Source of the DNA: Shigella phage SFP17
DNA: 51,296 bases
Reading direction: 5' to 3' (one strand)
Sequence record: MN432485
Positions within the stretch are counted from its first letter, which is position 1. Every line of letters begins with the position of its first letter. Below the pieces are notes generated by a model. It had not been told where the DNA came from. It saw nothing but the letters and a program-made list of their open reading frames with translations, and did no database searches. The position numbers and the translations under genes were made by a program. Below are positions 674 through 51,265 of the stretch, piece after piece.

Positions 674-2257
674 ATGAATTTTTCGTTTGAAACCAATAAA
701 CTAACACCAAAACAAATTATCGAATTAGCTGATGCACAAGGATTGTCTCCGGTGCGCGTGTCCATTCAGGCAAACGGATACCGTCAATCGTCCAGCTTTT
801 GGGGTGAGGTTAATGATGTTAATAACGGAAACGATCGCTACCCTATAATTTCTCTTGGCAATGATGTTGATGTTGTTGGTAAGTTGGCGCGCAACATTGC
901 TCGATCAGTTCAGTTCCCTGAATCATCGGCATATATGCATTTTATCGGCTGCGTGTCTGCTGCAATGCTTGGACGCTTCACTGTTGAGTATCACGGAACG
1001 GATCAACCAACCGCTCTGTACGTTGTTACAAGCCAGCCTCCTTCAACTGGTAAATCTGCCGTTAACAGCCTGGCACTTGCTCCTATGGTTGCTGAAGTGG
1101 AAAGAATTAATGATCAGCGAAAGAAGGAGCGAAAAAAGATACAAGCTAAGCTGGCAGGTCTTGCAAAAGAGATGAAAAGCGAGCGCTCCGGCGCTGACAT
1201 GGAATCTCTGTACCAGGAGAAAGAAGATCTGGAAGAAAAACTGGAAAAGATGTGTGACATCGTTTTCCCTGTGTCCGACACAACGCCGGAAGGACTTGCA
1301 AGAATCAACAATCGCCAGGGTAACTTTGCTGTGATTTCAGACGAGGCAACAAGTATTAACAGCCTTTTAGGTCTGACATATGCCAATAGCGAACGTAAAA
1401 CCAACAGCGAACTTGTGCTAAAAGCATGGGATCATGGTCATGTTTCTATAGCTCGTGCAAACGCTGACAACAATATGAGTTTTAAAGCTCTTGGCTGTAT
1501 GGCGGTAATTGCCCAGGATGAAACAATCAATGCCATCATGGATGCAGGATCGCGCGGTATCGGTGTAAGTGAGCGTTATTTGCTTGTGCGTGAGGAATCA
1601 TTTTTAGGTCGTCGAAAGTTTGTTGATGATAACGGTGATTCTACTTATGAACCTGTTGATGGAGAACTGAAAAGCCAATATTTCAAGCTGATCCATAACA
1701 TCATGAGTGAATCGAACATCCAGCTTAAGATCAGCAAATCAGCAATGAGAGTTCTTAACATGGCTCGTCAGGAGATGGAACCGCACCTTGCCGATGGCGG
1801 AAAGTATTCGCATACAATGCTGCGCGGTGCGCTTGGCAAAATGGATAAGCAGGTGATCAGGATTGCTTCGGTTTTGCACACTATCCGCAATTGGTTTAAT
1901 CCTGGCGGATACCCTCAAAAGTCGAAAGAGATTGAGGTTGAAACCGTTCAGGAAGCACTGCTGATGTTTAGCGAGTTGAGCAAAACATACATTAGCGCCG
2001 CCAACGCTTCTGGCTATGCTGGTGATGATGCTGAAATGGGTAAACTAATCGAGATTATCACTCGACACGGTAAGGCTAACAAGGGAATCTTGAATGTGCG
2101 CGCCATATATGAGGCTGCACGAAAAGTTAAGCCGTTTGTTGGTCAGGCTGGCGTAATGAAGCGTATGGAAACGCAACTGCTGCCGATGCTTGAAGAAAGA
2201 AATTATATTTGTGTGATTAATGGCGTTGTTTTCGTAAATCCAACATTGCTGGGGTAA
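674..2257 (+). CDS. P-loop NTPase of unknown function (527 aa)
   Basis: RBS AAAGGAG 7 nt upstream; Walker A-like SQPPSTGKS and Walker B-like FAVISDEAT in translation; motif promoter at 601-645. Confidence 0.75.
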   Translation: MNFSFETNKLTPKQIIELADAQGLSPVRVSIQANGYRQSSSFWGEVNDVNNGNDRYPIISLGNDVDVVGKLARNIARSVQFPESSAYMHFIGCVSAAMLGRFTVEYHGTDQPTALYVVTSQPPSTGKSAVNSLALAPMVAEVERINDQRKKERKKIQAKLAGLAKEMKSERSGADMESLYQEKEDLEEKLEKMCDIVFPVSDTTPEGLARINNRQGNFAVISDEATSINSLLGLTYANSERKTNSELVLKAWDHGHVSIARANADNNMSFKALGCMAVIAQDETINAIMDAGSRGIGVSERYLLVREESFLGRRKFVDDNGDSTYEPVDGELKSQYFKLIHNIMSESNIQLKISKSAMRVLNMARQEMEPHLADGGKYSHTMLRGALGKMDKQVIRIASVLHTIRNWFNPGGYPQKSKEIEVETVQEALLMFSELSKTYISAANASGYAGDDAEMGKLIEIITRHGKANKGILNVRAIYEAARKVKPFVGQAGVMKRMETQLLPMLEERNYICVINGVVFVNPTLLG

Positions 2258-5693: not shown

Positions 5694-5739
5694 ATTATGC
5701 CCGACACAAGGCCGGGCGTTTTAACAAAAAGTGCTATTT
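5694..5739 (-). promoter_or_regulatory. conserved-motif promoter (motif + 22 nt dyad spacer + CATAAT)
   Basis: AAATAGCACTTTTTGTTAAAAC then GCCCGG...CCGGGC then CATAAT; upstream of 5482-5661. Confidence 0.5.
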
Positions 5740-6713: not shown

Positions 6714-6759
6714 ATTATGGCGCAATCCTTCGCGCCTGTTTTAACAAAAAGTGCTATTT
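6714..6759 (-). promoter_or_regulatory. conserved-motif promoter upstream of dam
   Basis: AAATAGCACTTTTTGTTAAAAC + 22 nt (GGCGCgaaggattGCGCC) + CATAAT. Confidence 0.5.
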
Positions 6760-7173: not shown

Positions 7174-9229
7174 AATTAAAGTCCTTCTTGTACAAATTAT
7201 CTTCACCCTTGCTAGTCTTGCGGTGAGTCACACGCGATGGCGGCATAATGTGATTCACATATTGCATTATTTTTCGTGCATTACGATAGCTCGCCACCAT
7301 GCCAGCAACGCGGCGATCTGGTATGTGCTTAAGAGCAACGCTTCGCCATTTTGCGCGGCAAATTTGGCTCTCAGATTCAGGGAAAAATATCTCTCTCGCC
7401 CTGAAAGTGTCCATGCCATCGGAAAGCTCATAATTAAATATTATCCCTTTCTGGTTTTTCGTCATGTCAACCGAGAAAGATTGCACCTTGAACCAGTCGT
7501 TTTTTGTGTAGTGCTTTCCGCTCAACTTCTCGTTAGGGTCGATCAATGACATGTCGCAATGTCTGCACACCCTGGCCGCAATATCATTTTTCGTTCCACA
7601 ACCGCGATGAATAATCTTTTTAGTGCGCGGGTCAATCTGATCATCGCATGTCCTGAATTTAAAGAACCACTCGCATCTGTTGCCGTTTTCGTCTACGTTC
7701 ATACAACGACGAGCATAATAGCTATTAAGAGTTCCGCAAATAGGGCAAGGTTTCGGATCTTTACCATTTCTGAATCGCTTCTGATGCTGCGCCTGTTCAA
7801 GTATCGGATCAAAATAAAGCTCACCTAACTCATCCATAGTTCCTGAAAAATCCATTACTAGGTGATCATCTTTCTTGAATCCTTGCTCCTTATGCCACTT
7901 CTTAAGCAGTCGCATTCCGCGTCCTAAAAGCTGAATCAACAAAGTTAGCGATCCAATCTTGCGCAGAATAACAGACGTATCCCAAAACGGCACGTTAACG
8001 CCAGTTGTTAGCGCCTGCACCTGGAAGATGTATTTAACCTTCCCCTCGTATGCTTCCCTCAGCCACTCCTTGCGCTGATTGTCGCCAGTCTTACCAGTAA
8101 TGATCCTGTAAGTAGTCCCATGTGGCAACGCTGCCGCTGCCTCTTTGCAATGCCTTTCTCCTGCACATGTCACAAGTACGCCATTGCGGTTTTTACAGAT
8201 CTCGTGAACTTTTGCCATGATGCGCTTTGTCATGGTCGCTTCTTCATGAATTTTTTGTTCCATCCTACGAAGCGTTTTAGCGTCAAAGTCTGCAACGCCA
8301 TCCTCGCTGGATGCCTCAAACTCTGAAAGGTCATACCCTAGATCGCCAACGTCGCCAAAATTTGTTGGCACAACAGAACCGAATTTAATCAGGTAGTTGG
8401 TGTCAATATTAGTAACCTGTTCACGCCAGAATCCTTTTTGTTTTTTGTCTTCTACCAGGATCGGGACTACGCCGCGAAACTCCGATCCAGTCATGCCAAA
8501 TATGCGCAGTTCATGGCCATATGCTTTCCTGCAACGTCGCATCATTTCCATGATAATGACAGTGTATTGTGTGCGGCCTGTTCCCTCCATTGGCAAGCCA
8601 TCCTCACCAATCAGGAACTCTGTATTTCTGTTCCTGCTTCCCTTTGTTATGTCATAATCTGGATTTGGTACTTTTTCGCCTTTCTTAGTTGTCATTTGTA
8701 AAAATGACTCGTCTTTCTCTATTGCGTCGGCAAGGTCTTCCCAATCCACCTGGTGACACTCGTCAATCCCGATAACGTGCGGAACATAGTCGCCAAGCGC
8801 TTTAAACAGTCCATTAACTACAGTTCCCTCAGAACCAACAACGATCGGAAAGTATGCGCTTTTTGTCTTCAGTCCTGCACAATAGATGGAGTTCGGCACA
8901 CCAAGATTTGTTATCTCTTCAGAATCCTGATCCACAATCTCAGCCTGGCGAGCAAGGACCATCATTTTCAAGCCCATTTTCCGGCACTGGTGAGCAACCA
9001 TTGCAAACATCAATGTTTTGCCAGCCGATACGGACGCTTTAACAAAGAATGGATGCTCATAATTTTTCATACGCTTTGCGATCTCAGCGTATGCAACGCA
9101 CTGGTAAGGGTAAGGCACAATTTCGCCAACAGTGAATCGCTCCTGAATGGATTTAATTACCGCTTCACCAAGTGCTGATATTTGCTTTTCAATGTTTGGA
9201 ATCATTCTAAAACCTTTGAGTAATGCCAT
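7160..9229 (-). CDS. SF2 ATP-dependent DNA helicase with C-terminal zinc ribbon
   Basis: Walker A SVSAGKT, DECH box (GIDECHQV), paired C-terminal CxxC motifs; start ambiguous (ATG 9229 nearly leaderless, or ATG 9205 with AAGG RBS). Confidence 0.85.
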   Translation of the reverse strand: MALLKGFRMIPNIEKQISALGEAVIKSIQERFTVGEIVPYPYQCVAYAEIAKRMKNYEHPFFVKASVSAGKTLMFAMVAHQCRKMGLKMMVLARQAEIVDQDSEEITNLGVPNSIYCAGLKTKSAYFPIVVGSEGTVVNGLFKALGDYVPHVIGIDECHQVDWEDLADAIEKDESFLQMTTKKGEKVPNPDYDITKGSRNRNTEFLIGEDGLPMEGTGRTQYTVIIMEMMRRCRKAYGHELRIFGMTGSEFRGVVPILVEDKKQKGFWREQVTNIDTNYLIKFGSVVPTNFGDVGDLGYDLSEFEASSEDGVADFDAKTLRRMEQKIHEEATMTKRIMAKVHEICKNRNGVLVTCAGERHCKEAAAALPHGTTYRIITGKTGDNQRKEWLREAYEGKVKYIFQVQALTTGVNVPFWDTSVILRKIGSLTLLIQLLGRGMRLLKKWHKEQGFKKDDHLVMDFSGTMDELGELYFDPILEQAQHQKRFRNGKDPKPCPICGTLNSYYARRCMNVDENGNRCEWFFKFRTCDDQIDPRTKKIIHRGCGTKNDIAARVCRHCDMSLIDPNEKLSGKHYTKNDWFKVQSFSVDMTKNQKGIIFNYELSDGMDTFRAREIFFPESESQICRAKWRSVALKHIPDRRVAGMVASYRNARKIMQYVNHIMPPSRVTHRKTSKGEDNLYKKDFNYGND

Positions 9230-9294: not shown

Positions 9295-9768
9295 ATGAAA
9301 GAACAGCGAATCGCAGTATCAACTGGTAAGATTGACAAACGCACAATCAATGGCAATAACGGAACTCGACGGGGTAAAGATAAGAAAAAGCGCAAGCGCC
9401 CTACAGGATACTATGTTTTAAAAGATGAAGTGCGCGCCGGACTAAAAGCACGGCTTGACATTCTTATTGAGTATTACGGCAGCGTGTCAGCAATGGCAAA
9501 GCGTCTTAACGTTAGCCAGCAAACTGTAAATCAGTGGCGCGTTCGCGGTATGATTTCAGCCGCTGGCGCTCAAAAGGTGCATAACGATTACAAAAAGTAT
9601 GGCTGTCAAGGCTATCGCGCTTCATTCTGCCGTCCAGATCTGCGATTTGATTCCAATGGAAAACCGCTCACAAAGAGATGTGATAAGCGTGAAATGTTGC
9701 GAGTGGTAAGAATGTCAGATTATGAGCCTGGCGGATTCCTGTATAAACCTGAAAGCACTAATTGCTAA
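9295..9768 (+). CDS. HTH DNA-binding protein (157 aa), putative replication/transcription regulator
   Basis: RBS GGAGA; HTH-like AMAKRLNVSQQTVNQWRVRG; basic N-terminus; directly upstream of primase. Confidence 0.65.
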   Translation: MKEQRIAVSTGKIDKRTINGNNGTRRGKDKKKRKRPTGYYVLKDEVRAGLKARLDILIEYYGSVSAMAKRLNVSQQTVNQWRVRGMISAAGAQKVHNDYKKYGCQGYRASFCRPDLRFDSNGKPLTKRCDKREMLRVVRMSDYEPGGFLYKPESTNC

Positions 9769-14992: not shown

Positions 14993-15445
14993 TCAGAAAG
15001 GAATGTCGTCGTCAAAGTCCATAGGAGGTTGATTGCTTTGTCTTGGCTGTTGCGGTTGTTGCGGTTGATTCTGTTGTTGTGGCTGCCCACATCCTCCTTG
15101 CGTTCGCTGCTGATATTGTTGCTGGCTTTCCCCGCGCTGACTGAAGATAAGATTTGCAAATCCTCCTGGCATTAAACTTGAATACATCTTTCCGTTATAT
15201 TCGCGCGTTTCAATGCGCAGCGTGTCGCAAGATACAGAAATAACCTTGCCAACCTGGAACGCCTCAGCATACCAATCATTAAGACCTTCTGTTTTGGCAT
15301 TAAAAAAGAAACTGTAGTTTGTATATTGCCAGTTTCCATCTTTATCTTTGTATCGCTCTGAAAGTTCAACCACATAAAGTGTGCTGCCGTTAGGCATTTG
15401 CTTTACTCGCGGCTCTTTTCGGATCTCACCAGTAATAATATGCAT
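14993..15445 (-). CDS. ssb: single-stranded DNA-binding protein
   Basis: OB-fold-like N-terminus, Gln/Pro/Gly-rich tail ending in MDFDDDIPF; RBS AGGAGA. Confidence 0.9.
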   Translation of the reverse strand: MHIITGEIRKEPRVKQMPNGSTLYVVELSERYKDKDGNWQYTNYSFFFNAKTEGLNDWYAEAFQVGKVISVSCDTLRIETREYNGKMYSSLMPGGFANLIFSQRGESQQQYQQRTQGGCGQPQQQNQPQQPQQPRQSNQPPMDFDDDIPF

Positions 15446-17830: not shown

Positions 17831-17940
17831 ATAATCACAATAAAAATCACCGGACACGCAAAATCACACAAAACATAGATAACAAGAAAAAACAAATATA
17901 AATATATATACTACTAACTTATTGATTTATATGTATGTAT
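17831..17940. repeat. iteron/AT-rich repeat block, copy A
   Basis: ATCACA/ATCACC iterons incl. TAAAAATCACC, then AACAAATATAAATATATATACTACTAACTTATTGATTT; ~85 percent identical core to 47491-47530; plus strand almost G-free. Confidence 0.6.
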
Positions 17941-22790: not shown

Positions 22791-22824
22791 GCTTTTTCAC
22801 CTTTTGTGCTATTTGATTTGTTGA

Positions 22825-25001: not shown

Positions 25002-25358
25002 TTATTGCATTGATGTAAATTGTTCAGTAAATGTTGCTTTCACTTCCTGAACGGTTGCTGATATTGGAGTTAATCCAACGCTACCAGATTTCACCCTGAA
25101 TAGACCAGGTTGACCGTCAGGCATAAACCATAAAAACGGCTTCAGCCTGTGTCCATTCAGGAAGTCAACAACGTCTCTGTAATCCTTGCCAACATAGACA
25201 ATGGGAAACTCCCTGCGTACCGTGTTAAACCCTCCTGAAGCAACCTGCGTGTAACCATTGCCAAATGAGATTTCCCTGTCGTTATTCGATGTGGTCATAG
25301 TGCCGCCGCCTCCTTGCGTTTGCGTGCACCATTTGAATTGCTCAAGTTTCACTATCAC
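25002..25358 (-). CDS. minor tail protein M-like
   Basis: FKW...FGNGY...FLWFMPDG pattern resembles lambda M as recalled; GTG start overlapping tape measure stop (GTGA). Confidence 0.7.
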
Positions 25359-28027
25359 CCCCGCTTAGACATAACAAATTCATAAACTTCCCCACCCTGC
25401 GTACAGGAACGCTTAATCATATCAGTGAAAATCATTTTTACGCCAGTCTCCAAACCTTTCGGATCGCTTCCGTTGTTAATATCAACGCTGATCCCGCCAA
25501 TATTAAGATTTGTTGCTCCAGATGAAACGCCTCCGCCAGTGTATGAAGATCCACCAACAACGCCGCCATTTGCATAACCGCGCATCATTTTGTAAAGATT
25601 TCCAACTCCGATCCGCTTCGTGGCCTCCTTCGTCATGACAAACTCGCCTTTATGGACAACACCTGCTGGCTCATACTTCCCGCCATCGCCAGTGTATCCA
25701 CCAGTTGCAAATCCAACATTTTTAAGAAGGCTTCCAATCGTCCAAGTGTCACCGCCAACCGCACCGGATATGGCATTAAAGATAACCATCTTCGTGATCA
25801 TCTGGATAATCATTTGGATGATTGACGTTGCGAAGCTCTTAAAGTTTGCCTTACCTGTTGCAAGGAAAGTAGCCATTTGGTTGGTTAGACCGTTGAGCGC
25901 CTCGCTTGCAATATCTTGCACGTTGCCGTACATATCCATTGCATCTTGTCCGTAAACCTCCCATGCGTTCTTTGCTCCTGCAATCCAGTTATTTCTAAGC
26001 TGATCTTCAGTGGCGTAATACTCTTTCAGCTTTGCTTCCATCTGCTGATAAATTTCATCGTCGATACTACCGCCGCCAGCAACATAATCAGTTCGCAACT
26101 TTTTCAATTCAAGCTCTCGCTGGATTTGCAGATCTGTAGCTCCAGACTGTCGCAAGTTCATAGCATCAATGGCATCTGAAGTTTGCTGAATGAACTTTAG
26201 CCCTTCCTGATATTGCTTGTTCTTTCTCTGTTGCAAAACAATCTGATCGCCTATCTCTGCCTTTTCTTTTGCCATAGCAAGAACTGTTTTTTGCTCGTTT
26301 AGTAACGCCTGTTCCGCTTTTGTCAGCTTACGTTTGCTTTGCGCTTCCTCTAGGATCTGGATCTGCTTTTCAATACTCCACAAAGATTGCCTCTGGCGTG
26401 AAATAACATCATTTACAGTTCGGTGCTCTTTCAGCGTTTCAAGTTGCGCCTTGAGAACATATAGCTCCTTATCAAGCTGCTCTGTTGGTGCTTTTACAAC
26501 TCCGCCAACTTTCTCCTTTTGCTGCTGTGCCTTCTTCGCCTCTTCAAGCTCTTTTCGCCTGAACTCAACGTTCTCGGCTGCTCGTTTTTTCAACTCTTCG
26601 TCTGCTGTCCTTGCTACATTTTTCTGATCCTCTATGGCTTTGTTTAAAGCCTCTTGCGCCGCTCGAACTCTGTTTAAGGAAAGATTTTCTCTGTCGATGC
26701 GTGCTGCTCGTTCCGCCATATCCTTATTCGCATCTTTTACGATCTTTCCTATATCCTCATAGGTGTTCTTCGCAAATTGCAACATAGGATTTACATAACC
26801 AAGCTCTTTCCCCAACAGCCCTCCGGACGGTGAAGCATAATCATTCTTCGCTTTTAAGACTTCATACCACGAATCGCCAAGCTCAAGAACCTTGTTTTTG
26901 TGATCAGCAATCTCATTGTTGAGACTTACAAAACTTGATGCATTCTTGTATTCGTTTACCTTTACCTTTGCTTCGTCATAGGTAAACCCAACATCGACGA
27001 GTTTTTGTATGGCCTCGGTTGCTCCATCCTTAGTGCTTATGTATGCCTTTGCCAGATTATCGGCGCTCTCACCTGTCTTGTCAGATAGCGCCTGGATTCC
27101 AGTTGCAATCCGCTCCGCAAAATCACCAGAAAGACCAGTTGCCTCCTGAACGGTTTTTGTGATCTCCTTCAGTTGTGCATTTGCTTTGTATGCATTATAT
27201 GCAGCATAACCAAGAGCACCAGTCAGCGCCGTCATTCCTACACTTAAAGGCGTGACAAATGTCATTAGCGCTTTAAACGTGTTAGCAACACCGCCAAATG
27301 AGTCCTTGATTTGCCCGCCCTGCTGGATTGCGATCATCCATACTGGCATACCTGAAGCAAGAGAAGTAACAACGTCAGTAATCTGCATTGGCAATTGCGC
27401 CATTGCTTGCTTGTACTGCCCCATAGAAACGCCAAGTTTTGAGGCTTGTTTTTCCTGCTCCTTCATTTTTGCAATAAATGGCGCGGCCTCTGCACTAACT
27501 CCAAGTTGTGCGGCTCTCATTTCTACAAGCTCTGATTTTGTTTTTTCCGCTGCGTCAGCTTGCGCCTGCAATGCCGCAATGAACTTTCTTGCCTCAGCCT
27601 CTGCTCTTGCCTTATTTTTTGCTTCCTCAAGCGCTGCGCGGCCTTCTTCAGTTAGTGCCTTTTTAGTTGCGATCAGTTTATTTTGCTGCGTCTCAAGAAT
27701 TGATCCTAACTCAAAGAATGTATCATCCGGCACAATTCCTTTTTTCCAAAGCGCATCAAGCTGTGTCGCAGCTTGGCGCAACTTATCCATTTTGCTTGCT
27801 GTCGGATCTATTGCCGACTGAATTGCTTTAAATTCTTGCTTCTGCTTTGCCAATTCCTCAGCCAGTTGTTTGGCTCTTTGTCTTGCAACAACCTCTGAAT
27901 CAACAAAACTCTCAACGCTCCCCTTTGCGTCGTCGTTTGCCTTCTTGAATTGCTGTAAAGACTTTACAGCATTGTTGAGTTGAGAAACGTCAACCCCAAG
28001 CGTCAAGCCTGCGTATTGTTCTGACAT
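25355..28027 (-). CDS. tail tape measure protein (890 aa)
   Basis: Long alpha-helical Ala/Gln/Lys/Glu-rich protein with Gly-rich C-terminus; RBS GGAGG; follows chaperone pair. Confidence 0.9.
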
Positions 28028-28044
28028 TATTAATCCTCCAGGTA

Positions 28045-28068
28045 ATAAAAAAAGCGCCCGTAGGCGCT
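28045..28068 (-). terminator. intrinsic terminator/attenuator between chaperone and tape measure genes
   Basis: AGCGCC-cgta-GGCGCT followed on minus strand by TTTTTTTT; chaperone stop lies in the stem. Confidence 0.55.
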
Positions 28069-28696
28069 TATTTTGAATGCATCATTTCAAGTGCTTTTTG
28101 CTCCATGATTCGCAAGTCGTTTAGCGCCATCTCGCGATCCTCAACCTTGTAAATCTCAAAAAGCATAGGCAAGACATTATAATCAAATCCGTAAGCGCCA
28201 CCGCCAGAACATCTCCATTGCGTTTGCATTGCGCAAAATATATCCCATGATTGCATCATGCTTTCATCAAATATAACCTCTGGCGGATCTTCTCCTTCAT
28301 AGTCTGCCCTTGTAAGGCCAACGGCCTCAAGCTCTGCATCTGTCGGCGGTTTCTGATAAAACAGGTAAACCGCCCTTTTTAGTTTTTTACTCGCTGCCCC
28401 GCAAGCGCTTTCATGTATGCGCTAGTTAATCCGATTGCTGTTGCTGGGTAGTAATCAAGAAGCTGTTTAATATTTTCTTCGTTAAATTCATCATCAAGAT
28501 TCCAACCTGAAGCAAGGAAGGTGATCATTTCAACATCGCTCATTGGAGTATCTGAAGTGTATCGCTCGTGAATCTCACTTGTTTTGCGGTGGCGAACTGT
28601 GAAGATAATTGTTTGATCTTCTCCGTTAGGTATTGCAAATTTCACTGGTAATTTAAAGTCAGGAAGCGGCCCAATCGTCAATTTCATTTTTGACAT
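28068..28696 (-). CDS. tail assembly chaperone frameshift product (G-T-like) via -1 programmed frameshift
   Basis: Slippery A_AAA_AAC at 28382-28388; -1 frame stays open from the slip site to stop at 28068. Confidence 0.6.
28379..28696 (-). CDS. tail assembly chaperone (lambda G-like)
   Basis: 105 aa directly upstream of tape measure; ends GTA AAA AAC TAA with slippery heptamer. Confidence 0.75.
   Translation of the reverse strand: MSKMKLTIGPLPDFKLPVKFAIPNGEDQTIIFTVRHRKTSEIHERYTSDTPMSDVEMITFLASGWNLDDEFNEENIKQLLDYYPATAIGLTSAYMKALAGQRVKN
28382..28388 (-). other. -1 programmed frameshift slippery heptamer A_AAA_AAC
   Basis: Last codons of chaperone gene read GTA AAA AAC TAA; -1 frame open downstream to 28068. 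Confidence 0.6.
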
Positions 28697-28709
28697 TTCT
28701 TTCTCCTTG

Positions 28710-28729
28710 ATAGCACTTTTTGTTAAAAG
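28710..28729 (+). promoter_or_regulatory. conserved motif copy in reverse orientation relative to flanking tail genes
   Basis: ATAGCACTTTTTGTTAAAAG reads rightward, abutting the RBS of the minus-strand chaperone gene; poor -10 (TAGCAT) at the usual spacing. Confidence 0.35.
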
Positions 28730-28765
28730 AATTGATTATGAATCGTGTAGCATGATTGTACAGTA

Positions 28766-28790
28766 ACAAAAAAAGGGGCGCAACGCCCCT
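28766..28790 (-). terminator. strong intrinsic terminator after major tail protein gene
   Basis: AGGGGCG-caa-CGCCCCT followed on minus strand by TTTTTTTT. Confidence 0.8.
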
Positions 28791-28795
28791 TGTGA

Positions 28796-29458
28796 TTATG
28801 CTACTTGAGAAGGTAGGAAGGTGAATCGACCTTTCAGGGATACAGACAGGGAAACAGTTTCCATTTCGTTAACGGTCGTTTGTGGGATCTCGTTAAACGA
28901 AAGGACACCAGCCCAGCAACGCATCTCTTTCGCTTTCGGTACATACATGCGAAGCGCGGTCACTTCACCGGATTCATCTGCTGCACGAAGTAACGGATAG
29001 ATCGCGTTATCGTATTCGTGCGCAAAAGTGTAGGTCAGAGAAACGGCGCTCTTATAGGTAGGTAACTGCTGCTCCTGGTCGTCCGCCAAACACTGATAAG
29101 TGTAATATTGCTGTTCTCCGCCGTCCTGCGACAAATCCTGAACGCAAGGGATCTCAGTCCATGCATCAATCTTGGCAAAAGATGCAGTGCCGCCAGTCGG
29201 GAACACGTTCTGATCGGTAGTATCAACACCCTCAAGAGTCACGCTTGTTTCTTCACCGTTAGCCTTTACACGCATAACACGATCAATCAGCTTGCCCCAA
29301 GAGGACGCAGTTATGATCACATAATCACCTTTCTTGTACGCAGTGCCACCAGATGCAACGGTGAATACAGGATCTTTAGCGTTTGATACTGCCGTTGCTT
29401 GGATTTCGCTGCCACGATTGCTCTCAACGAAAATTTGCGATCCATTTGGTAAATGCAT
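28796..29458 (-). CDS. major tail protein
   Basis: 220 aa with strong RBS AAGGAG, followed by strong intrinsic terminator; position upstream of chaperones. Confidence 0.7.
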   Translation of the reverse strand: MHLPNGSQIFVESNRGSEIQATAVSNAKDPVFTVASGGTAYKKGDYVIITASSWGKLIDRVMRVKANGEETSVTLEGVDTTDQNVFPTGGTASFAKIDAWTEIPCVQDLSQDGGEQQYYTYQCLADDQEQQLPTYKSAVSLTYTFAHEYDNAIYPLLRAADESGEVTALRMYVPKAKEMRCWAGVLSFNEIPQTTVNEMETVSLSVSLKGRFTFLPSQVA

Positions 29459-29463
29459 AATTT

Positions 29464-29862
29464 TTACTCCTTTGTTTCAATTCGAACATAAAATCTTATT
29501 GGGAGAAGCCAGCCGCTTTCACTCTTGAGCGGCTTGTGAACTCTTGCACCCTCATATATATAACCATGCTCCAACATTTTACCATCGTAAAAGAATTGCG
29601 CAATCTCTTTAGCGAGCACACGCGGTCTGTCAGTTCCGTAACCTGGCGGAAACACAATGCCAACCTGAATCATTCCGATATAGGAAACACATTTGCGATC
29701 CAATGACAAGTATTCTGTGTCAACTTCAGTATAGTCAAACTTCAACCACGGCGAACCGTCACCAGGTGGAGTGAACTCTACGTTTTCATAAGCGATCATG
29801 AATCTTCTTTCGTATTCAGTAGCCAGCGCCTTACGCGCCGATAGCATTAATTCATAGTGCAT
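29464..29862 (-). CDS. putative tail terminator / minor tail protein
   Basis: Position only; RBS GAGGG. Confidence 0.45.
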   Translation of the reverse strand: MHYELMLSARKALATEYERRFMIAYENVEFTPPGDGSPWLKFDYTEVDTEYLSLDRKCVSYIGMIQVGIVFPPGYGTDRPRVLAKEIAQFFYDGKMLEHGYIYEGARVHKPLKSESGWLLPIRFYVRIETKE

Positions 29863-30295
29863 TTTTTGCCCTCGACTCTTTTATTGCCTCAGCCATATAA
29901 GATCTCAACTTAACCGCTACAATCCCAAGCACACCCGCTGGCGCTTGTTTTGAATGACCGTATTCAAGCGCGTTAGCGTAAATAAGCATATTTGAAAAAT
30001 AAATGGCCCTTACCGCTCCGCCACCTCTCAATATTGCGTATATAGCTCGCTTACCTTCCGCGATCGTTTTGTCGCCGTGCTTATCGTACTGGTTAAGCGC
30101 ATACAATGGCGGCTTATTTGCTGTTACCTGCCAGTTTCCACGGTAACGACCAGTATCTACCGGAGAACGCTTAACCAAATCTGTGTGTACTTTTTCGGCG
30201 AATAACTCCACGCAATCTTTTAGTCCACTATCAACGGCGTTTATCCACGCATCAATGTTGCCGTGAAATTCTCTTATCGTGTAGTTTTTAGCCAT
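29852..30295 (-). CDS. putative tail completion / head-tail joining protein
   Basis: Position only; RBS GAAGGA. Confidence 0.45.
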   Translation of the reverse strand: MAKNYTIREFHGNIDAWINAVDSGLKDCVELFAEKVHTDLVKRSPVDTGRYRGNWQVTANKPPLYALNQYDKHGDKTIAEGKRAIYAILRGGGAVRAIYFSNMLIYANALEYGHSKQAPAGVLGIVAVKLRSYMAEAIKESRAKNAL

Positions 30296-30659
30296 GTACA
30301 GAAATCCTTCTCAAAATAGGCCGATAAGCAACAGTGACATTGGTTTGTCTGATTGGTCTTGCTTCAACTACAACATATAATTCACCATCAACATCAATAT
30401 GATACCCGTTCTTAATTTCAACCTTGTTGTTAAAAACTCCCAACTTATCGGTTACTCGTATTGTCTCGCCGTCAATCTCGCGTACTTTTGGTGAGCGAAT
30501 TAAACCTTTGATCATTACACTGATCTCTGGCTTTTCTACTTCTTCGCCTCCGATGATTTCAACGCTTCCACGCTGCGTTATGCACTTAAACTCACCGTTG
30601 CCATCACTAAAGAAGTTAATTCCTTCGGTTGCCATTCTTGCGATCTCGTTATAGTTCAT
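30288..30659 (-). CDS. putative head-tail connector protein
   Basis: ATG at 30659 with RBS AGGAGA (track start 30665 is TTG); position. Confidence 0.45.
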
Positions 30660-31072
30660 TTGCAACGTCTCCTAAATCCAGTAACAAGACCAAATCCGCC
30701 GCCTTTTTTGCGATTTAACGTTTCATACATTTTACCCCACGGAGTTTGCCTTATCTCTTTTCCGCTTGAATCGCCGGACACACGATCAAATGTCTGACTA
30801 AATTCACCAGTCAGGGAAAATGACGCCACGCGCCGCGAGTAACTATCTACGCTTTCCCCTTCCTGTTTCATCGCTCCATCAAGCGTCATAAGGTGCAACG
30901 TATAAAGAGCAACCGCTTTGGGATATGATTCTTTAAACCGCTTCTTGCAAACAAATTCCTTTGCAAGCCCAATCCATGCCACCATTAAATCTGGATCAAT
31001 CTGCTTCATCGGTGGCGCTAATTTCACGATTTGCTGCGTTATTTCTGCGTCAGTGAAAAATTCATCAACCAT
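30656..31072 (-). CDS. putative head-tail adaptor protein
   Basis: Position downstream of capsid genes. Confidence 0.45.
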
Positions 31073-31095
31073 TGTGTTTCCTCCAGATATGACAA

Positions 31096-31114
31096 AGGGC
31101 GCTTATAGCGCCCT
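31096..31114 (-). terminator. GC hairpin (weak terminator)
   Basis: AGGGCGC-ttata-GCGCCCT; only a short T-tract follows. Confidence 0.35.
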
Positions 31115-31119
31115 CTTTA

Positions 31120-31392
31120 TTAATAGATGCCGCCGTCTTCAAGTTCGGCTTTGCTCTTGCCCTCTCGTGGGTCTTTTTTACGTTTGCTTGCTGCGCTCTG
31201 TTTGATTTCTTCGTTCAATGCGGAGTTGTCTTTAACCTCCAGATCTCCTTTTGCAATTAGATATTCAAACGCGCTTGTTTTCAATTTTGATTCTTCTACG
31301 TCAAACTCTTTGCCTGGATGATAATGCTCACCATCAACAATGATAAGGCACACGCCGGAAACCTTTAGCGTTACAGTTTTTTCTTTAGCCAT
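31120..31392 (-). CDS. hypothetical structural-module protein (90 aa)
   Basis: RBS GGAGG; flanked by hairpins. Confidence 0.55.
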   Translation of the reverse strand: MAKEKTVTLKVSGVCLIIVDGEHYHPGKEFDVEESKLKTSAFEYLIAKGDLEVKDNSALNEEIKQSAASKRKKDPREGKSKAELEDGGIY

Positions 31393-31405
31393 TTCATAAC
31401 CTCCA

Positions 31406-31435
31406 ATAAAAAAGGGAATCCAGTTAAGGATTCCC
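31406..31435 (-). terminator. intrinsic terminator after major capsid gene
   Basis: GGGAATCC-agttaa-GGATTCCC followed on minus strand by TTTTTTATTGG. Confidence 0.75.
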
Positions 31436-31448
31436 CAATGTTATACGA

Positions 31449-32423
31449 TTAACCTGATTTTTTCAAGCCAGTAATAAGTACTAGCGTAAACGGACGGTAA
31501 ATCGTCAGGCCAGTACATTTTGAAGTGCACGGAACTTTGAAATGCAGATCTTTTGGTTGCGCCGGAAGCATGTTAAATGCTTCTGGAATTTCGATCGACA
31601 TGTTCATCGGGTCTTTCTCATATACCAGGCAACCTTTCGTTCCAGCGCCATCAATATCCTCAAGCTCTGCGATTGAGTCGATGGTGATTCCGCTGTTTTG
31701 TTTCTGGAAGTATTCCAGATAACTTTCAGTGGTGTTTTCCATTCGAACGGAAAGAACCTTGCGCATAGACGGCGGAATCAAGATATTGGTTGCGCGGTGC
31801 TGACCATTGGTGATGGTCTGAATGGTTTCAATAGCCTTTTCCAGTTCATCAGATGCAGCCTGCGGGAACTTAGTGTTTTCATCATTACTTAACCAGCCAG
31901 AAGACATGATCTTTGTCAGGTTAGGATGTTCGAACACCGAAAGAATCTTATGCGGCTTTGAACCCTTAAACACCAGGCGGTTAACTTCCTGATCATGAGC
32001 GTTTTGCGCTGCGTTTGCCTTGCGAGTGGAAAGGCTCTTACCAGTGCGCTGACCAGCCTTGATTTCGTCAATGGAGATCAAGAACGCGTTACCCAGGCGG
32101 AATACTTTACCGAACTCGCTAGACATCAGCGCGTCAACGGTCGGCAGGTCGTCGGTGTAATCAGCGATAATTTTTGCGTAACCAACTTTGTCAAACATCT
32201 GATATTCAAAAGTCTTATCAGTATCAGAAAGCTCATTAGTTACAGGGAATACGCGAAGCGCTGAACCTGCCGGATATTCTTTCTCGTAAGCATTAGAGCG
32301 AATCTTATGCAGTTCTTGAGCGGCCCAAATACCCATATCGGACGCATCACCTTTAACGCCGCGAGTAGCCAGATAGCTAGAAACAATGTCCGCATCTAGC
32401 TGATCAAATTTTTCTTTTTCCAT
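31449..32423 (-). CDS. major capsid protein
   Basis: 324 aa, strong RBS GGAGGAAG, strong terminator downstream; position after scaffold and decoration-like genes. Confidence 0.8.
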   Translation of the reverse strand: MEKEKFDQLDADIVSSYLATRGVKGDASDMGIWAAQELHKIRSNAYEKEYPAGSALRVFPVTNELSDTDKTFEYQMFDKVGYAKIIADYTDDLPTVDALMSSEFGKVFRLGNAFLISIDEIKAGQRTGKSLSTRKANAAQNAHDQEVNRLVFKGSKPHKILSVFEHPNLTKIMSSGWLSNDENTKFPQAASDELEKAIETIQTITNGQHRATNILIPPSMRKVLSVRMENTTESYLEYFQKQNSGITIDSIAELEDIDGAGTKGCLVYEKDPMNMSIEIPEAFNMLPAQPKDLHFKVPCTSKCTGLTIYRPFTLVLITGLKKSG

Positions 32424-32469
32424 TTTCTTCCTCCATATATAAAGGTCGTTAGTATGTAACGGACCAATG

Positions 32470-32489
32470 ATAGCATTTTTTGTTAAACG
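32470..32489 (+). promoter_or_regulatory. conserved motif copy in reverse orientation relative to flanking capsid genes
   Basis: ATAGCATTTTTTGTTAAACG reads rightward between two minus-strand capsid genes; poor -10 (TATGGG). Confidence 0.35.
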
Positions 32490-32506
32490 TGCAACATAAT
32501 TTTGTG

Positions 32507-32941
32507 TTATGGGTCAATGCTTACCCCGACAATATATGAATCATTATCAACCTTTACATGTTCGCCAGTAAAGATCCAACCAATCAGCAAGTCGCCTTCA
32601 CTGTATGCCACATCTCCATCTTGCGTTACAAATACTTTATCTCCATATTCTGGCGCTTCGCTCTCAGAAGTTAAGCACCAAACATTACCTCGACTAACCA
32701 CATTAACTGGATCGCCCTCCTCATATATGCACGAGTCCGGCGGCCTTACTGCCACGCCAATAACGAGATCCCCATTAACACTTGCTATTTTGTATCCATT
32801 TGTTGTATGTGATAGTCGCACAATCTTACCTGGCTCAATAAATTCATCTCCGCACACGAAAGATCCGTTAATCACCATTATTGAAGAATCGACCATGCAC
32901 CCTGGCGACTCAGCGCCAACAATGACTGAATAATCACTCAT
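32507..32941 (-). CDS. capsid-associated (decoration-like) protein, paralog 2
   Basis: Shares G-V-W-L...AP..G...DG.V....G....WI.TG...K block with 32987-33499; RBS GGAG. Confidence 0.55.
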   Translation of the reverse strand: MSDYSVIVGAESPGCMVDSSIMVINGSFVCGDEFIEPGKIVRLSHTTNGYKIASVNGDLVIGVAVRPPDSCIYEEGDPVNVVSRGNVWCLTSESEAPEYGDKVFVTQDGDVAYSEGDLLIGWIFTGEHVKVDNDSYIVGVSIDP

Positions 32942-32954
32942 GAGAACTCCAAAT

Positions 32955-32979
32955 ATAAAAAAGGCGCTCAGTGAGCGCC
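32955..32979 (-). terminator. intrinsic terminator between the two capsid-associated paralogs
   Basis: GGCGCT-loop-AGCGCC followed on minus strand by TTTTTTATATTT. Confidence 0.65.
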
Positions 32980-32986
32980 ATATTTA

Positions 32987-33499
32987 TTAACCTGCTGAAA
33001 CTGCCGGAACTTTTTGCACCTGAACCTCTACCAGCTTCAAGTCTTGAAACTTGGTGAAATCACCAGTCGCGATCCAGTTTGTTTCGATAGTGCCAGACGT
33101 GGTATCGACCTGACCATCATCAGACAGTTTGATTGCAGTGCCGAAAGCTGGCGCGGAAGCGTCTTTAGCCAACATCCAAACACGCCCCTCAGTCATTACG
33201 TTGATTCCGCCGCCAGATTCATAAATCATTCGACCGTCAGACGAAGTTGTCTGAAAGTGAGATCGAATTGCAACGCCGTAAGCCTTTCCGCTTGCCGCCA
33301 TCGGCTTAATTAGCTTATTGCCCATAGCGTCAACGCCGCCATGCTGGACCGCCACACCAACAAAAACAGACTGATTCTGATTGCCTGCTGCATTCTCAAG
33401 AACACAAGCGCCATCAATATTATAAGCTGAAGTGTCAGAAACCTGACCAGGTAACGCACGAGACATTACAGCAAAGTAGCTTGCTCCAATTGTAGCCAT
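32987..33499 (-). CDS. capsid-associated (decoration-like) protein, paralog 1
   Basis: Paralogous to 32507-32941; RBS AGGAGA; terminator downstream. Confidence 0.55.
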   Translation of the reverse strand: MATIGASYFAVMSRALPGQVSDTSAYNIDGACVLENAAGNQNQSVFVGVAVQHGGVDAMGNKLIKPMAASGKAYGVAIRSHFQTTSSDGRMIYESGGGINVMTEGRVWMLAKDASAPAFGTAIKLSDDGQVDTTSGTIETNWIATGDFTKFQDLKLVEVQVQKVPAVSAG

Positions 33500-36684: not shown

Positions 36685-36710
36685 AATAAAAAAGGCTGGA
36701 TTTACCAGCC
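36685..36710 (-). terminator. intrinsic terminator/attenuator between terL and portal
   Basis: GGCTGG-attta-CCAGCC followed on minus strand by TTTTTTATTGG, immediately before the portal RBS. Confidence 0.6.
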
Positions 36711-36740
36711 TTTGATTATATATTGGTTTGTCGATTCGTG

Positions 36741-38309
36741 CTATTTGTTCCGCAAACCTGCCAATTTTTTCATTCTTCCTACCGGATCATCTGCCATGTT
36801 CATTTCAATGTTAACAGCATCAATGATGTTATCAACAATATCATCATGAGGATGCGAATCATCGAATGTAAACGCCGCAACTTCAGCCAGTATCTCAGCC
36901 AGCATAGGGTGGGATTCTGGAAGTGCTACGCGTCCGGCGCGCATTACTGGCGCTGCGTCCATTGCACGAGTAACCTTGTCTTTATCGCGCTGAACGGGAT
37001 TGATCTTGATCATGATTTTTTTCGCTGCGCTCTGAATCAAGCCAGTGCCAGACGATTTATCTTCAACATGAATCCTTCTCAACGTTCCGCATTCTTTATT
37101 GCGCTTCCAGCACTGATTAACGAACGCAACAAAATTAGTCTCAAGGTCTGGCGCTTCCCATTTTCCGCGAACACCATCAATGAAGTAAACGCGATCTTTA
37201 TACATCCCCCAATAACAGATCACGGAGTAGTCGTTAAGCTCCCCTGTTTTCTGCGCGGTATCAACCGTGATAAATGTATATTCAAAGCGATCCGGTTTTG
37301 GTAGCGTGCATTTCTCGCTGCTTCCGTAATACCGAAACCACTCTGTTTTAAACACGTTGCCGCCAAGCGCAACAGGCTGTTGCTGATACTGACTAGCAAA
37401 CGTGTACGGATCAGCATTTCGAAGTGCAAGTAATTCCTCCGCGCTTTCCTTAGCAGGCCAGAATGAATAATGAGCAACACCATCAATCATTACTGGCTTA
37501 CTGGACAAAACATCGCGATCAAACTCAGGCTTTAACCAATCAGGAAGCGTTTCGCGATATTCCTTAGTAACGAGCGCCGGAATACTGACCACCTTAAACT
37601 GGATGCCGCCCATGCCGCCGTTTGTCATGAACCATGTTGAATCATTGACGTGTAGCCGTTGCTGGACCATTACGATTGGCGTGGTGTCCTTCATTCGACG
37701 TGATCGCACCGTGTTCTTTAGGCGCATGTGTCCGGCTTCGCGCTTCACCTTAGAAAGCATATCATCCGGCTTGTCTGGATCGTCAAGAACCAGCATACCA
37801 GTAAATCCATCATCCATGTAGCCGCCACGCAGACCAGTAACCTGACCACCGATAGAACGCGAGTTAACTTGCAATTTAACCTTGCCGCCATCGGTTACAA
37901 TCAAATCCTTTGCGCTCGCCTTTGCCAGCTTTCCAGGCCATAGCTCCTGCCATTCTGGAGAACCAATAATCTCTTTGATGCGGTTGCTATTCTGCTGGAC
38001 AAGGCCATCACTAAACGAAAGATTAAGATTTCGCACCTTCTTACTTTTCAATGACGCATAAGGTGACATGTGGATCGAGAATATCTCTGTTTTACCACTG
38101 CCTGGCGTTATGTTGAAAATTACATTCTGTGACTCGCCTTTGATGATTTTTTCAACTTCGCTACATAGGTAACTGAAATGCCAGTTTCCTAAGAATTTCT
38201 GACCTTGCAATAACTGAAACCAAATGCGGATCATCTTTTCGAATGAATATTCGCTCATTTCCTTAACGGCGCGTTTTTGCGCCGCTGTTAAGTCTTCCCA
38301 AATCAGCAT
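36741..38309 (-). CDS. terL: terminase large subunit
   Basis: Walker A-like TPGSGKTE, Walker B-like LVLDDPD, C-terminal acidic nuclease-like region; followed by portal. Confidence 0.85.
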   Translation of the reverse strand: MLIWEDLTAAQKRAVKEMSEYSFEKMIRIWFQLLQGQKFLGNWHFSYLCSEVEKIIKGESQNVIFNITPGSGKTEIFSIHMSPYASLKSKKVRNLNLSFSDGLVQQNSNRIKEIIGSPEWQELWPGKLAKASAKDLIVTDGGKVKLQVNSRSIGGQVTGLRGGYMDDGFTGMLVLDDPDKPDDMLSKVKREAGHMRLKNTVRSRRMKDTTPIVMVQQRLHVNDSTWFMTNGGMGGIQFKVVSIPALVTKEYRETLPDWLKPEFDRDVLSSKPVMIDGVAHYSFWPAKESAEELLALRNADPYTFASQYQQQPVALGGNVFKTEWFRYYGSSEKCTLPKPDRFEYTFITVDTAQKTGELNDYSVICYWGMYKDRVYFIDGVRGKWEAPDLETNFVAFVNQCWKRNKECGTLRRIHVEDKSSGTGLIQSAAKKIMIKINPVQRDKDKVTRAMDAAPVMRAGRVALPESHPMLAEILAEVAAFTFDDSHPHDDIVDNIIDAVNIEMNMADDPVGRMKKLAGLRNK

Positions 38310-43600: not shown

Positions 43601-43631
43601 GATGTTTTCCTTTTTCGTTGTCGATGGGCTT

Positions 43632-43677
43632 ACTATACCGCAAGCCCAACAATCTGTTTTTGCAAAAAGTGCTATTT
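43632..43677 (-). promoter_or_regulatory. conserved-motif promoter
   Basis: AAATAGCACTTTTTGCAAAAAC + 22 nt + TATAGT; upstream of 43301-43600. Confidence 0.5.
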
Positions 43678-46365: not shown

Positions 46366-46397
46366 TTTGTTTTCCTCAATCTCGTTTCGATGAGGCT

Positions 46398-46443
46398 ATT
46401 ATGCCAGGATTTGCACCTGGCGTTTTAACAAAAAGTGCTATTT
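46398..46443 (-). promoter_or_regulatory. conserved-motif promoter
   Basis: AAATAGCACTTTTTGTTAAAAC + 22 nt (CCAGGtgcaaatCCTGG) + CATAAT; upstream of 46180-46365. Confidence 0.5.
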
Positions 46444-47375: not shown

Positions 47376-47545
47376 ACATATAAAAATCACCACACATCAC
47401 CATTGATTAAAAAATATACAATCACACATACATATCACCACAAACAATACCACTCCACCATATACCCATAGAACAAGCTCAACAGTAAATAACAAATATA
47501 AATACATATATAACTAACTTATTGATTTTATGGGTATATATATAA
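47376..47545. repeat. iteron/AT-rich repeat block, copy B
   Basis: TAAAAATCACC plus 4-5 ATCAC(C/A) iterons, then AACAAATATAAATACATATATAACTAACTTATTGATTTT; direct orientation relative to copy A; plus strand almost G-free over ~125 bp. Confidence 0.6.
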
Positions 47546-47867: not shown

Positions 47868-47905
47868 GCACACATCGAAACGAGATACCATTCAGGAGAT
47901 AGCAA

Positions 47906-48744: not shown

Positions 48745-48777
48745 ACACACATCGACAACGAATGCGAGGATTTGAAA

Positions 48778-49201: not shown

Positions 49202-49241
49202 CACTTTTTGTTAAAACCGATGCGTCTCTGATTGGTATATT
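49197..49241 (+). promoter_or_regulatory. conserved-motif promoter
   Basis: AATAGCACTTTTTGTTAAAAC + 22 nt + TATATT; upstream of 49273-49467. Confidence 0.5.
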
Positions 49242-49272
49242 AAGCGCATCGACAACGAACGAGGATTTAAAA

Positions 49273-51225: not shown

Positions 51226-51265
51226 CACTTTTTGTTAAAAGCCAGGTGTAAAAGCCTGGCATAAT
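51220..51265 (+). promoter_or_regulatory. conserved-motif promoter driving the gene at window position 1
   Basis: AAATAGCACTTTTTGTTAAAAG + 22 nt (GCCAGGtgtaaaaGCCTGGC) + CATAAT, then RBS AAAGGAGA at window end. Confidence 0.5.

Follow-up and report, generated by a model that had tools for sequence, protein, structure and literature searches.

Two reversed marbox-like repeats in the structural operon of a T1-like Shigella phage may place late promoters under negative control

What role might a regulatory repeat play when it points away from the gene beside which it lies? The question arises in Shigella phage SFP17 (sequence record MN432485), whose DNA of 51,296 nucleotides, referred to below as the window, is by its sequence the near-complete genome of a T1-like phage of the Drexlerviridae (Hanrivervirus type); over 28000-33000 its identity is 98.4% to Escherichia phage haarsle and 95-97% to other Hanrivervirus phages, and the isolation host of the closest relatives is Escherichia coli K-12 MG1655. 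A short motif occurs in the window in 15 copies with at most 3 mismatches, against 0.06 expected from shuffles, and every good copy faces its downstream gene except two, which lie reversed at 28710-28729 and 32470-32489 among the minus-strand structural genes (terminase, portal, protease-like protein, two cement proteins, capsid and tail genes, with the tape measure protein gene among them). A first, sequence-only reading had described these two as pointing rightward, antisense to the tail assembly chaperone gene (start 28696) and the major capsid gene (start 32423); both copies are indeed read on the plus strand there, and Pfam supports both genes on the minus strand. It had also set them apart from ordinary activating copies, which agrees with what we find, since one appears to lie within a sense promoter and the other to belong to an antisense promoter. 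In the explanation that we favour, which taken whole we regard as evenly poised, the motif would be the marbox, its forward copies would make early promoters, and the two reversed copies would exert negative control over late promoters.

The identity of the motif comes from its agreement with a published host site. The soxbox/marbox consensus is AYNGCACNNWNNRYYAAAYN, as quoted in PMC2064960 and also given as AYNGCACNNWNNRYYAAA, and its first 18 positions have 14 exact matches in the window against 0.11 expected. With the full 20-mer and at most 1 mismatch, 19 window sites are found against 0.75 in shuffles, and each of the two reversed copies differs from it at one position. The phage motif shares 15 of 20 positions with each of two marboxes taken from MG1655, that of micF (ACAGCACTGAATGTCAAAAC) and that of mar (ATGCCACGTTTTGCTAAATC), which are said to be among the sites validated by Martin et al. 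in 1999. It also fits the shorter definitions of the Grainger laboratory, GCAHWWWWTGYYAAA (PMC6900184) and gcannwwntgnnaaa (PMC12052159), and its copies are much nearer to the consensus than most chromosomal marboxes. The repeat is thus matched closely enough that we hold it probable, on the letters, that it is the binding site of host MarA, SoxS and Rob; as a marbox it would be an asymmetric 20-bp site for these monomeric AraC-family regulators, together with RamA in Klebsiella and Salmonella.

The element itself is not new. A 21-nt direct repeat, aaATAGCACnnnTTGnTAAAA, was reported from 21 sites of phage TLS by Kropinski et al. [quoted passage not shown] That repeat and the motif of the window are the same element, which is therefore published with its function left unexplained, and the TLS paper makes no marbox connection. 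Our literature searches for a link between T1-like phages and the marbox or MarA, SoxS and Rob found no paper.

The forward copies show how the motif is arranged when it points toward a gene. In a class II marbox promoter the marbox faces forward and is centred some 41 bp upstream from where transcription starts; there it compensates for an absent -35 element (PMC10268841; PMC12052159). In the window a TATAAT-like -10 hexamer lies 17-18 bp past the 20-mer in 16 of the 19 sites; in T1 it lies at 17-19 bp in 16 of 21 sites, and in Klebsiella phage KP36 at 17-18 bp in all 13, the background being 6%. The marbox centre falls near -41, and AAAACG occupies the -35 position with no -35 hexamer there. 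The same layout is read in MG1655 at micF (20-mer, 18 bp, TAGAAT; the annotated RNA begins 8 nt further on) and at sodA (20-mer, 18 bp, TATAAT). Judged by this geometry, the forward phage copies fit the class II definition, and they would be class II marbox promoters driving the non-structural phage genes. Their nearest counterparts are the MarA/SoxS/Rob-activated class II promoters of E. coli (micF, sodA, lpxC P2, lpxL P1 and rfaY P1), with which they share the asymmetric 20-bp consensus, the forward orientation over a missing -35 and, as at micF and sodA, the 18 bp to the -10. They differ in that the phage is virulent and has about 16 such promoters in a 50-kb genome, and in that binding in the phage is a prediction.

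Other readings of the motif were considered and rejected. A sigma-54 promoter (TGGCAC-N5-TTGC, with GG and GC 10 bp apart) is not matched, as TAGCAC gives AG for GG and TTG follows after 3 nt instead of 5. An UP element, A/T-rich, at -40 to -60 and contacted by the alpha C-terminal domain, would precede a functional -35, whereas the motif spans -50 to -31, contains an invariant GCAC and substitutes for the -35. Stoperators of the mycobacteriophage L5 type, asymmetric sites at which the prophage repressor of a temperate phage binds within transcribed regions, do not agree with forward copies at a fixed -41 relative to the -10, outside the transcripts, in a phage for which no repressor or integrase is annotated. 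IHF and CRP/FNR-like sites have unfitting key bases or spacing, and a palindromic operator for a Cro-like protein is at odds with an asymmetric motif of strict orientation.

Turning to the reversed copy at the capsid gene, we find it within a predicted sigma-70 promoter of that gene on the sense strand, here called P_MCP (Table 1). The copy runs backward from -10 to -29 of P_MCP, so that it covers the 16-bp spacer in full and overlaps the extended -10. Comparison rests on 77 related loci gathered through the capsid protein (53-99% identity), 75 of which include the promoter region; a reversed copy lies about 60-70 bp 5' of the capsid gene in nearly all 77. Among 45 distinct sequences the -35 is TTGNNN in 44 (TTGCAC, TTGACG, TTGAAC or TTGACC), the spacer is 16 bp except for 17 in two, TG stands at -15/-14 in all 45, and the -10 is TATCAT, TATTCT, TATATT or TATTAT. 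P_MCP is present in all 75 loci covering the region, including five beyond the 45 distinct sequences, and its elements are kept even where capsid proteins are as low as 53% identical; in the GenBank record of KP36 these same 28 bp carry a promoter annotation (15358-15385). By its sequence P_MCP has what defines an extended -10 sigma-70 promoter, namely TTGNNN, a spacer of 16-18 bp, TG at -15/-14 and TANNNT. It had been missed by a consensus scan whose rule set leaves out TTGCAC with TATCAT; a promoter that the scan did propose, TGTACA-16-CATAAT, is conserved only in the closest relatives and was discarded.

The spacer of P_MCP has also kept its marbox, which stands at 0-2 mismatches in 44 of the 45 distinct relatives and is more degenerate in five further Webervirus-like loci. 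It alternates between the subtypes CTTTTTG and CGAATTG, both of which are used by forward copies, and by this comparison the spacer is not free to drift. On the plus strand, by contrast with the forward copies, the hexamer at the class II position is TATGGG, and a T at its position 6 occurs in only 2 of 38 distinct relatives; a CATAAT 6 nt past the copy is not conserved either. We accordingly rejected an antisense promoter at this copy, no -10 at 17-19 bp being conserved on that strand. The plus-strand open reading frame at 32502-32933, 3' of the copy, has no Pfam match and shadows a genuine cement-protein gene on the opposite strand. Class I geometry, with a backward marbox at -62 or -72, was set aside, since the starts would fall within coding sequences. 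The capsid copy has thus the layout of a marbox set between the two hexamers, -35 and -10, of a sigma-70 promoter for the regulated strand, and would be an operator-like marbox inside a conserved late promoter. Its homologue is already listed in the TLS table (PMC11447400) as the negative-strand repeat DR7 (15024-15044), which adjoins terminator T35 in the positive-strand head region and passed there without comment.

A factor bound at this copy would sit in the core of P_MCP, and repression is by analogy its most likely effect, because P_MCP is already near-consensus. A close parallel is the rob promoter of MG1655, where the backward site ATAGCATTTTTTG overlaps TGcTATTAT and its 13 nt are identical to the phage capsid copy; rob reads ...AAAAAATGCTATTAT and the counterpart in P_MCP reads ...AAAAAATGCTATCAT. 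MarA reportedly represses rob through a backward marbox between the hexamers (Schneiders and Levy 2006). The phage site differs in controlling a capsid gene and in having a consensus RE2 half (TTAAAC), unlike rob, and repression in the phage is what we infer from the likeness. At pbpG, the experimental precedent, MarA, SoxS and Rob act as repressors on a promoter whose spacer is overlapped by the marbox (PMC12052159), so that pbpG and rob share with the phage copy a marbox between -35 and -10. The rob promoter (MG1655 upstream region, 1340-1400, minus strand) also contains a forward marbox-like site, AAAACACTGAATGCTAAAAC, which has CACTGAATG..AAAAC in common with the micF marbox and lies just 5' of the backward ATAGCATTTTTTG.

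The copy at the chaperone gene has a different setting. Reversed marboxes at this place were found in 19 related loci, representing 16 distinct sequences, and in all 16 the plus-strand hexamer exactly 18 bp past the 20-mer is TAnnnT. Positions T1, A2 and T6 are invariant while positions 3-5 vary (TAGCAT, TAGAGT, TAGGAT, TACAGT, TATATT and others), and the 18-bp spacer is fixed in length although its sequence has diverged almost wholly. Seven distinct relatives lack the marbox, and TAnnnT is found at the corresponding place in none of them. These alignments support the view that marbox and antisense -10 are gained and lost together, as a functional rightward class II promoter predicts. On its own strand the chaperone copy fits the class II definition, and it would be a factor-dependent antisense promoter opposing a late promoter.

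That late promoter is P_TAC, the predicted sense sigma-70 promoter of the chaperone and tape measure genes. Its -10, TAnAAT, lies 1 bp beyond the antisense -10 on the opposite strand, TTGCnn (TTGCGY) stands exactly 17 bp from TAnAAT in every relative read, and the -35 falls within the tail-tube terminator, in its loop and 3' arm. Relatives without the chaperone marbox (TLS-like phages, L006, L021 and Webervirus) keep P_TAC. The two promoters stand face to face, the predicted start of each (plus-strand 28760, minus-strand 28748) lying within the -10 of the other, and RNA polymerase would for this reason be unable to hold both. The length of the putative antisense RNA is unpredictable, because the terminator hairpin would be entered from the wrong side and has no U-run after it. 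A sense extended -10 promoter at the chaperone copy itself (TGcTATCAA) was rejected, as relatives lack its final T and a transcript started there would be without the Shine-Dalgarno sequence.

Table 1. Features around the two reversed marbox copies in the window; promoter elements and starts are predictions
Feature	Position	Strand	Details
Major capsid gene	31449-32423	-	PF09950, E 5e-54
Reversed 20-bp marbox, 5' of major capsid gene	32470-32489	+	ATAGCATTTTTTGTTAAACG; perfect match to GCAHWWWWTGYYAAA, 1 mismatch to 20-mer
P_MCP, putative sense sigma-70 promoter of major capsid gene	32467-32494	-	TTGCAC-16-TGcTATCAT
P_MCP -35	32494-32489	-	TTGCAC
P_MCP TG	32475-32474	-	
P_MCP -10	32472-32467	-	TATCAT; predicted start near 32460
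Hairpin then T-rich run, directly 3' of P_MCP -10	32444-32465	-	terminator T35 in TLS
Shine-Dalgarno and start of major capsid gene	32421-32434	-	GGAGG 32434-32430; ATG 32423
Tail tube (major tail) protein gene	28796-29458	-	PF08813
Putative intrinsic terminator after tail tube gene	28773-28791	-	8-bp GC-rich stem then T-run
Tail assembly chaperone gene	28379-28696	-	PF08748, E 6e-31
Reversed 20-bp marbox, 5' of chaperone gene	28710-28729	+	ATAGCACTTTTTGTTAAAAG; mismatch to AYNGCACNNWNNRYYAAAYN at position 19
Putative antisense -10	28748-28753	+	TAGCAT, exactly 18 bp past marbox; predicted start near 28760
P_TAC, putative sense sigma-70 promoter of chaperone/tape-measure genes	28755-28783	-	TTGCGC-17-TACAAT
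P_TAC -35 and -10	28783-28778; 28760-28755	-	TTGCGC; TACAAT; predicted start near 28748
Shine-Dalgarno and start of chaperone gene	28694-28707	-	AGGAG 28707-28703; ATG 28696

These results divide what had first been said of the two copies together. They had been placed directly against the ribosome binding sites, which is right for the chaperone copy, 2 nt from its AGGAG, but not for the capsid copy, 35 nt from its GGAGG with the remainder of the -10 element and a hairpin between. They had been thought to lack a good -10 at the usual spacing; this stands for the capsid copy and fails for the chaperone copy, whose TAGCAT is at the canonical 18 bp. Short antisense RNAs, one of the roles suggested, have comparative support (16 distinct relatives) at the chaperone copy and are rejected at the capsid copy. 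The other suggestion, sites of the same factor acting negatively as roadblock or translational regulator, is the better reading of the capsid copy as far as the negative action goes, but neither as roadblock nor as translational operator, since that copy occupies the spacer and extended -10 of a conserved sense sigma-70 promoter.

Put together, each of the reversed copies would form part of the control region of a strong late sigma-70 promoter. At the capsid gene a factor bound in the spacer and extended -10 of P_MCP would repress, as at E. coli pbpG and rob; at the chaperone gene, RNA polymerase recruited to the antisense promoter would exclude P_TAC and would meet tail-tube read-through head-on. 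While the factor is available, the early promoters would be on and the capsid and chaperone/tape-measure promoters held down; late relief would come once replicating phage DNA titrates the factor, or once it is lost in another way. The promoter anatomy and its conservation are well supported, and from them we infer the binding protein, the regulatory sign, the start sites and the means of relief. Negative control of the capsid and chaperone promoters is plausible, at a little below an even chance, and relief by titration is speculative. That all Drexlerviridae should use host MarA, SoxS or Rob as a master timing factor, with about 15 early promoters on and two late promoters off until titration, we consider somewhat doubtful.

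The regulator genes of this explanation are encoded by the host: MG1655 annotates rob and marR, and RamA is additionally present in Klebsiella and Salmonella (PMC10268841). The sole regulator annotated in the phage is a 157-aa protein (9295-9768, plus strand) with a weak Cro/YdaS-type helix-turn-helix, its Pfam matches lying just under the gathering scores; its gene has a weak marbox promoter of its own and diverges from the marbox promoter of the helicase. Homologues of MotA or AsiA were not seen in the window phage. In T4 middle promoters a MotA box near -30 replaces the -35 element and is read by phage MotA after AsiA has remodelled sigma-70. The two systems are alike in lacking a -35 and having an activator box instead; here the box is centred near -41 and matches a site of host factors.

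Several observations weigh against the favoured explanation. Consensus position 19 (Y) is A in most forward copies, a deviation shared by micF. In Webervirus the marbox of the capsid promoter has decayed to 2-4 mismatches, its GCAC core becoming TCAC or TCAT, while the hexamers and TG of P_MCP are retained and 13 forward marboxes are intact; the capsid marbox would accordingly be a layer of regulation that a universal promoter can do without. TLS-like and Webervirus phages have no chaperone copy, so that neither reversed site is indispensable. Cells that are not under stress have little MarA and SoxS, and most of their Rob is sequestered (PMC2787020, PMC10268841); a Keio-collection screen with a T1-like phage makes no mention of rob, which implies that there is no strict dependence on this single gene. 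Single mutants tell little here, the three regulators being redundant.

The strongest competitor, though in our judgement an unlikely one, leaves the architecture as it is and has the motif bound by a phage-encoded factor, either a small early protein or the Cro/YdaS-like protein of 9295-9768, supplied first by a few consensus sigma-70 promoters. Most early open reading frames have no Pfam match, the Cro-like gene adjoins the primase gene, the core TAGCA-N5-TGCTA is palindromic in some copies, and the TLS paper (PMC11447400) gives three conventional sigma-70 promoters able to act first. Yet agreement with about 14 of the 15 specified marbox positions, together with the micF/sodA spacing, would then be coincidence, and the asymmetric flanks, the common TGTTA half and the strict orientation to the -10 are unsuited to a dimeric protein of Cro type. 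Moreover, no AraC-type protein was found in the phage, tblastn with MarA and SoxS sequences as queries giving nothing below E=1 and Pfam giving no AraC-type domain in the 27 window open reading frames scanned. It is less probable still, and indeed rather improbable, that the factor in the P_MCP spacer activates the capsid promoter, for instance by distorting adjacent base pairing, so that the copy would be a positive late element. Precedents exist, and the first of them also counts against repression: MarA bound in reverse orientation in the core of flgBP2 activates it by disturbing base pairs 5 bp away (PMC12781870), and a reverse-orientation site over the -35 activates yadG in Salmonella (PMC10268841). 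A reverse marbox in the core promoter is common to flgBP2 and P_MCP, but flgBP2 depends on sigma-28, is a poor promoter and has a defect in melting, whereas P_MCP is a strong, near-consensus extended -10 sigma-70 promoter that should need no help; the predicted distortion would fall at -8 and not at -11, the same factor activating both kinds of promoter would erase the distinction of early from late, and in Webervirus the marbox has decayed while the promoter is retained.

Two further explanations have only a slim chance, about equal for both. That both reversed copies are rightward promoters making short antisense RNAs against the capsid and chaperone messages agrees with the chaperone copy, which shows every class II feature in the antisense direction, but at the capsid copy the class II hexamer is without its essential final T in 36 of 38 distinct relatives, and the conserved positions there are those of the sense promoter, not the CATAAT beyond the copy. 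That no factor is involved, the capsid copy being no more than spacer and -10 sequence within a constitutive sigma-70 promoter and the chaperone copy the relic of a duplicated or inverted promoter cassette, is suggested by a P_MCP that on paper works without a factor, by the decay in Webervirus and by the loss of the chaperone copy in several clades; spacers usually drift, however, and that of P_MCP keeps its marbox and swaps between two marbox subtypes, while at the chaperone copy the 18-bp length and TAnnnT are fixed and the sequence between has diverged almost fully. As for the motif being an RNA-level translational operator beside the ribosome binding site, the 2 nt between the chaperone copy and its Shine-Dalgarno sequence first suggested it, and it now seems scarcely credible: among relatives this distance ranges from 1 to 11 nt while the distances to the promoter elements are fixed, the capsid copy lies upstream of the predicted start, forward copies would show the opposite strand in RNA, and Rfam gives nothing relevant and folds are no better than those of shuffles (z-score 0.17).

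The late promoters have a further common trait, in that terminators are fused to them at 32444-32465, 36694-36720 and 28773-28791, all on the minus strand. The capsid and portal -10 elements lie 1-4 nt 5' of a terminator-like hairpin with the predicted start in its 5' arm, as is the case for the start of P_MCP in the hairpin at 32444-32465, and by such fusion transcripts from upstream would end where new ones start. Weaker marbox-like sites adjoin other late genes in non-class-II positions (36725-36744 and 22793-22812, minus strand): a forward marbox-like copy is 4 nt ahead of the portal TATAAT, and the marbox-like site ATAGCACAAAAGGTGAAAAA overlaps the Shine-Dalgarno sequence of the large tail fibre gene. 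Phage T1 has forward copies at 8362-8381 and 25021-25040, immediately ahead of terS and a J-like gene.

Around the forward promoters other repeated features were noticed. A box, CATCGAAACGA or CATCGACAACGAA, is common to them about 8-20 nt past the -10, that is, at the beginning of the predicted transcripts and before the Shine-Dalgarno sequence; examples are 46375-46390 (minus strand) and 47872-47885, 48750-48762 and 49247-49260 (plus strand), with others at further forward promoters. Many forward promoters contain a GC-rich inverted repeat between marbox and -10, or flanking the -10 so that the hexamer is in the hairpin loop (window 46402-46420, 51243-51261, 5698-5716, 6718-6735, 49223-49250 and 43628-43650; T1 about 1470-1500; KP36 about 1800-1830). 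In T1 one reads GGGGTA..TATAGT..TACCCC, and these repeats have no T-run in the sense direction. An A-rich direct repeat of 95 nt with 71% identity (17834-17928 and 47434-47528) occurs once in each of the genome's two long divergent intergenic regions, in both cases close to a forward marbox promoter.

T1-like phages commonly contaminate laboratories and are often candidates for phage therapy against E. coli, Klebsiella, Shigella and Salmonella, and their transcription programme is essentially uncharted, the 2024 reannotation of TLS giving only three conventional promoters (PMC11447400). The marbox reading supplies the family with a complete and testable map of early and late promoters and with a concrete host dependency. 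If it is true, the development of these phages would be wired to the mar/sox/rob stress state of the host, a state that reacts to salicylate, bile salts, redox drugs and antibiotics, and their growth would be tied to the regulators of intrinsic antibiotic resistance, with consequences for combining phages with antibiotics and for host range. In the two reversed copies the repressive marbox layout would be met for the first time in a phage, and the site at the chaperone gene would be a factor-dependent promoter that opposes a late promoter face to face, as a switch.

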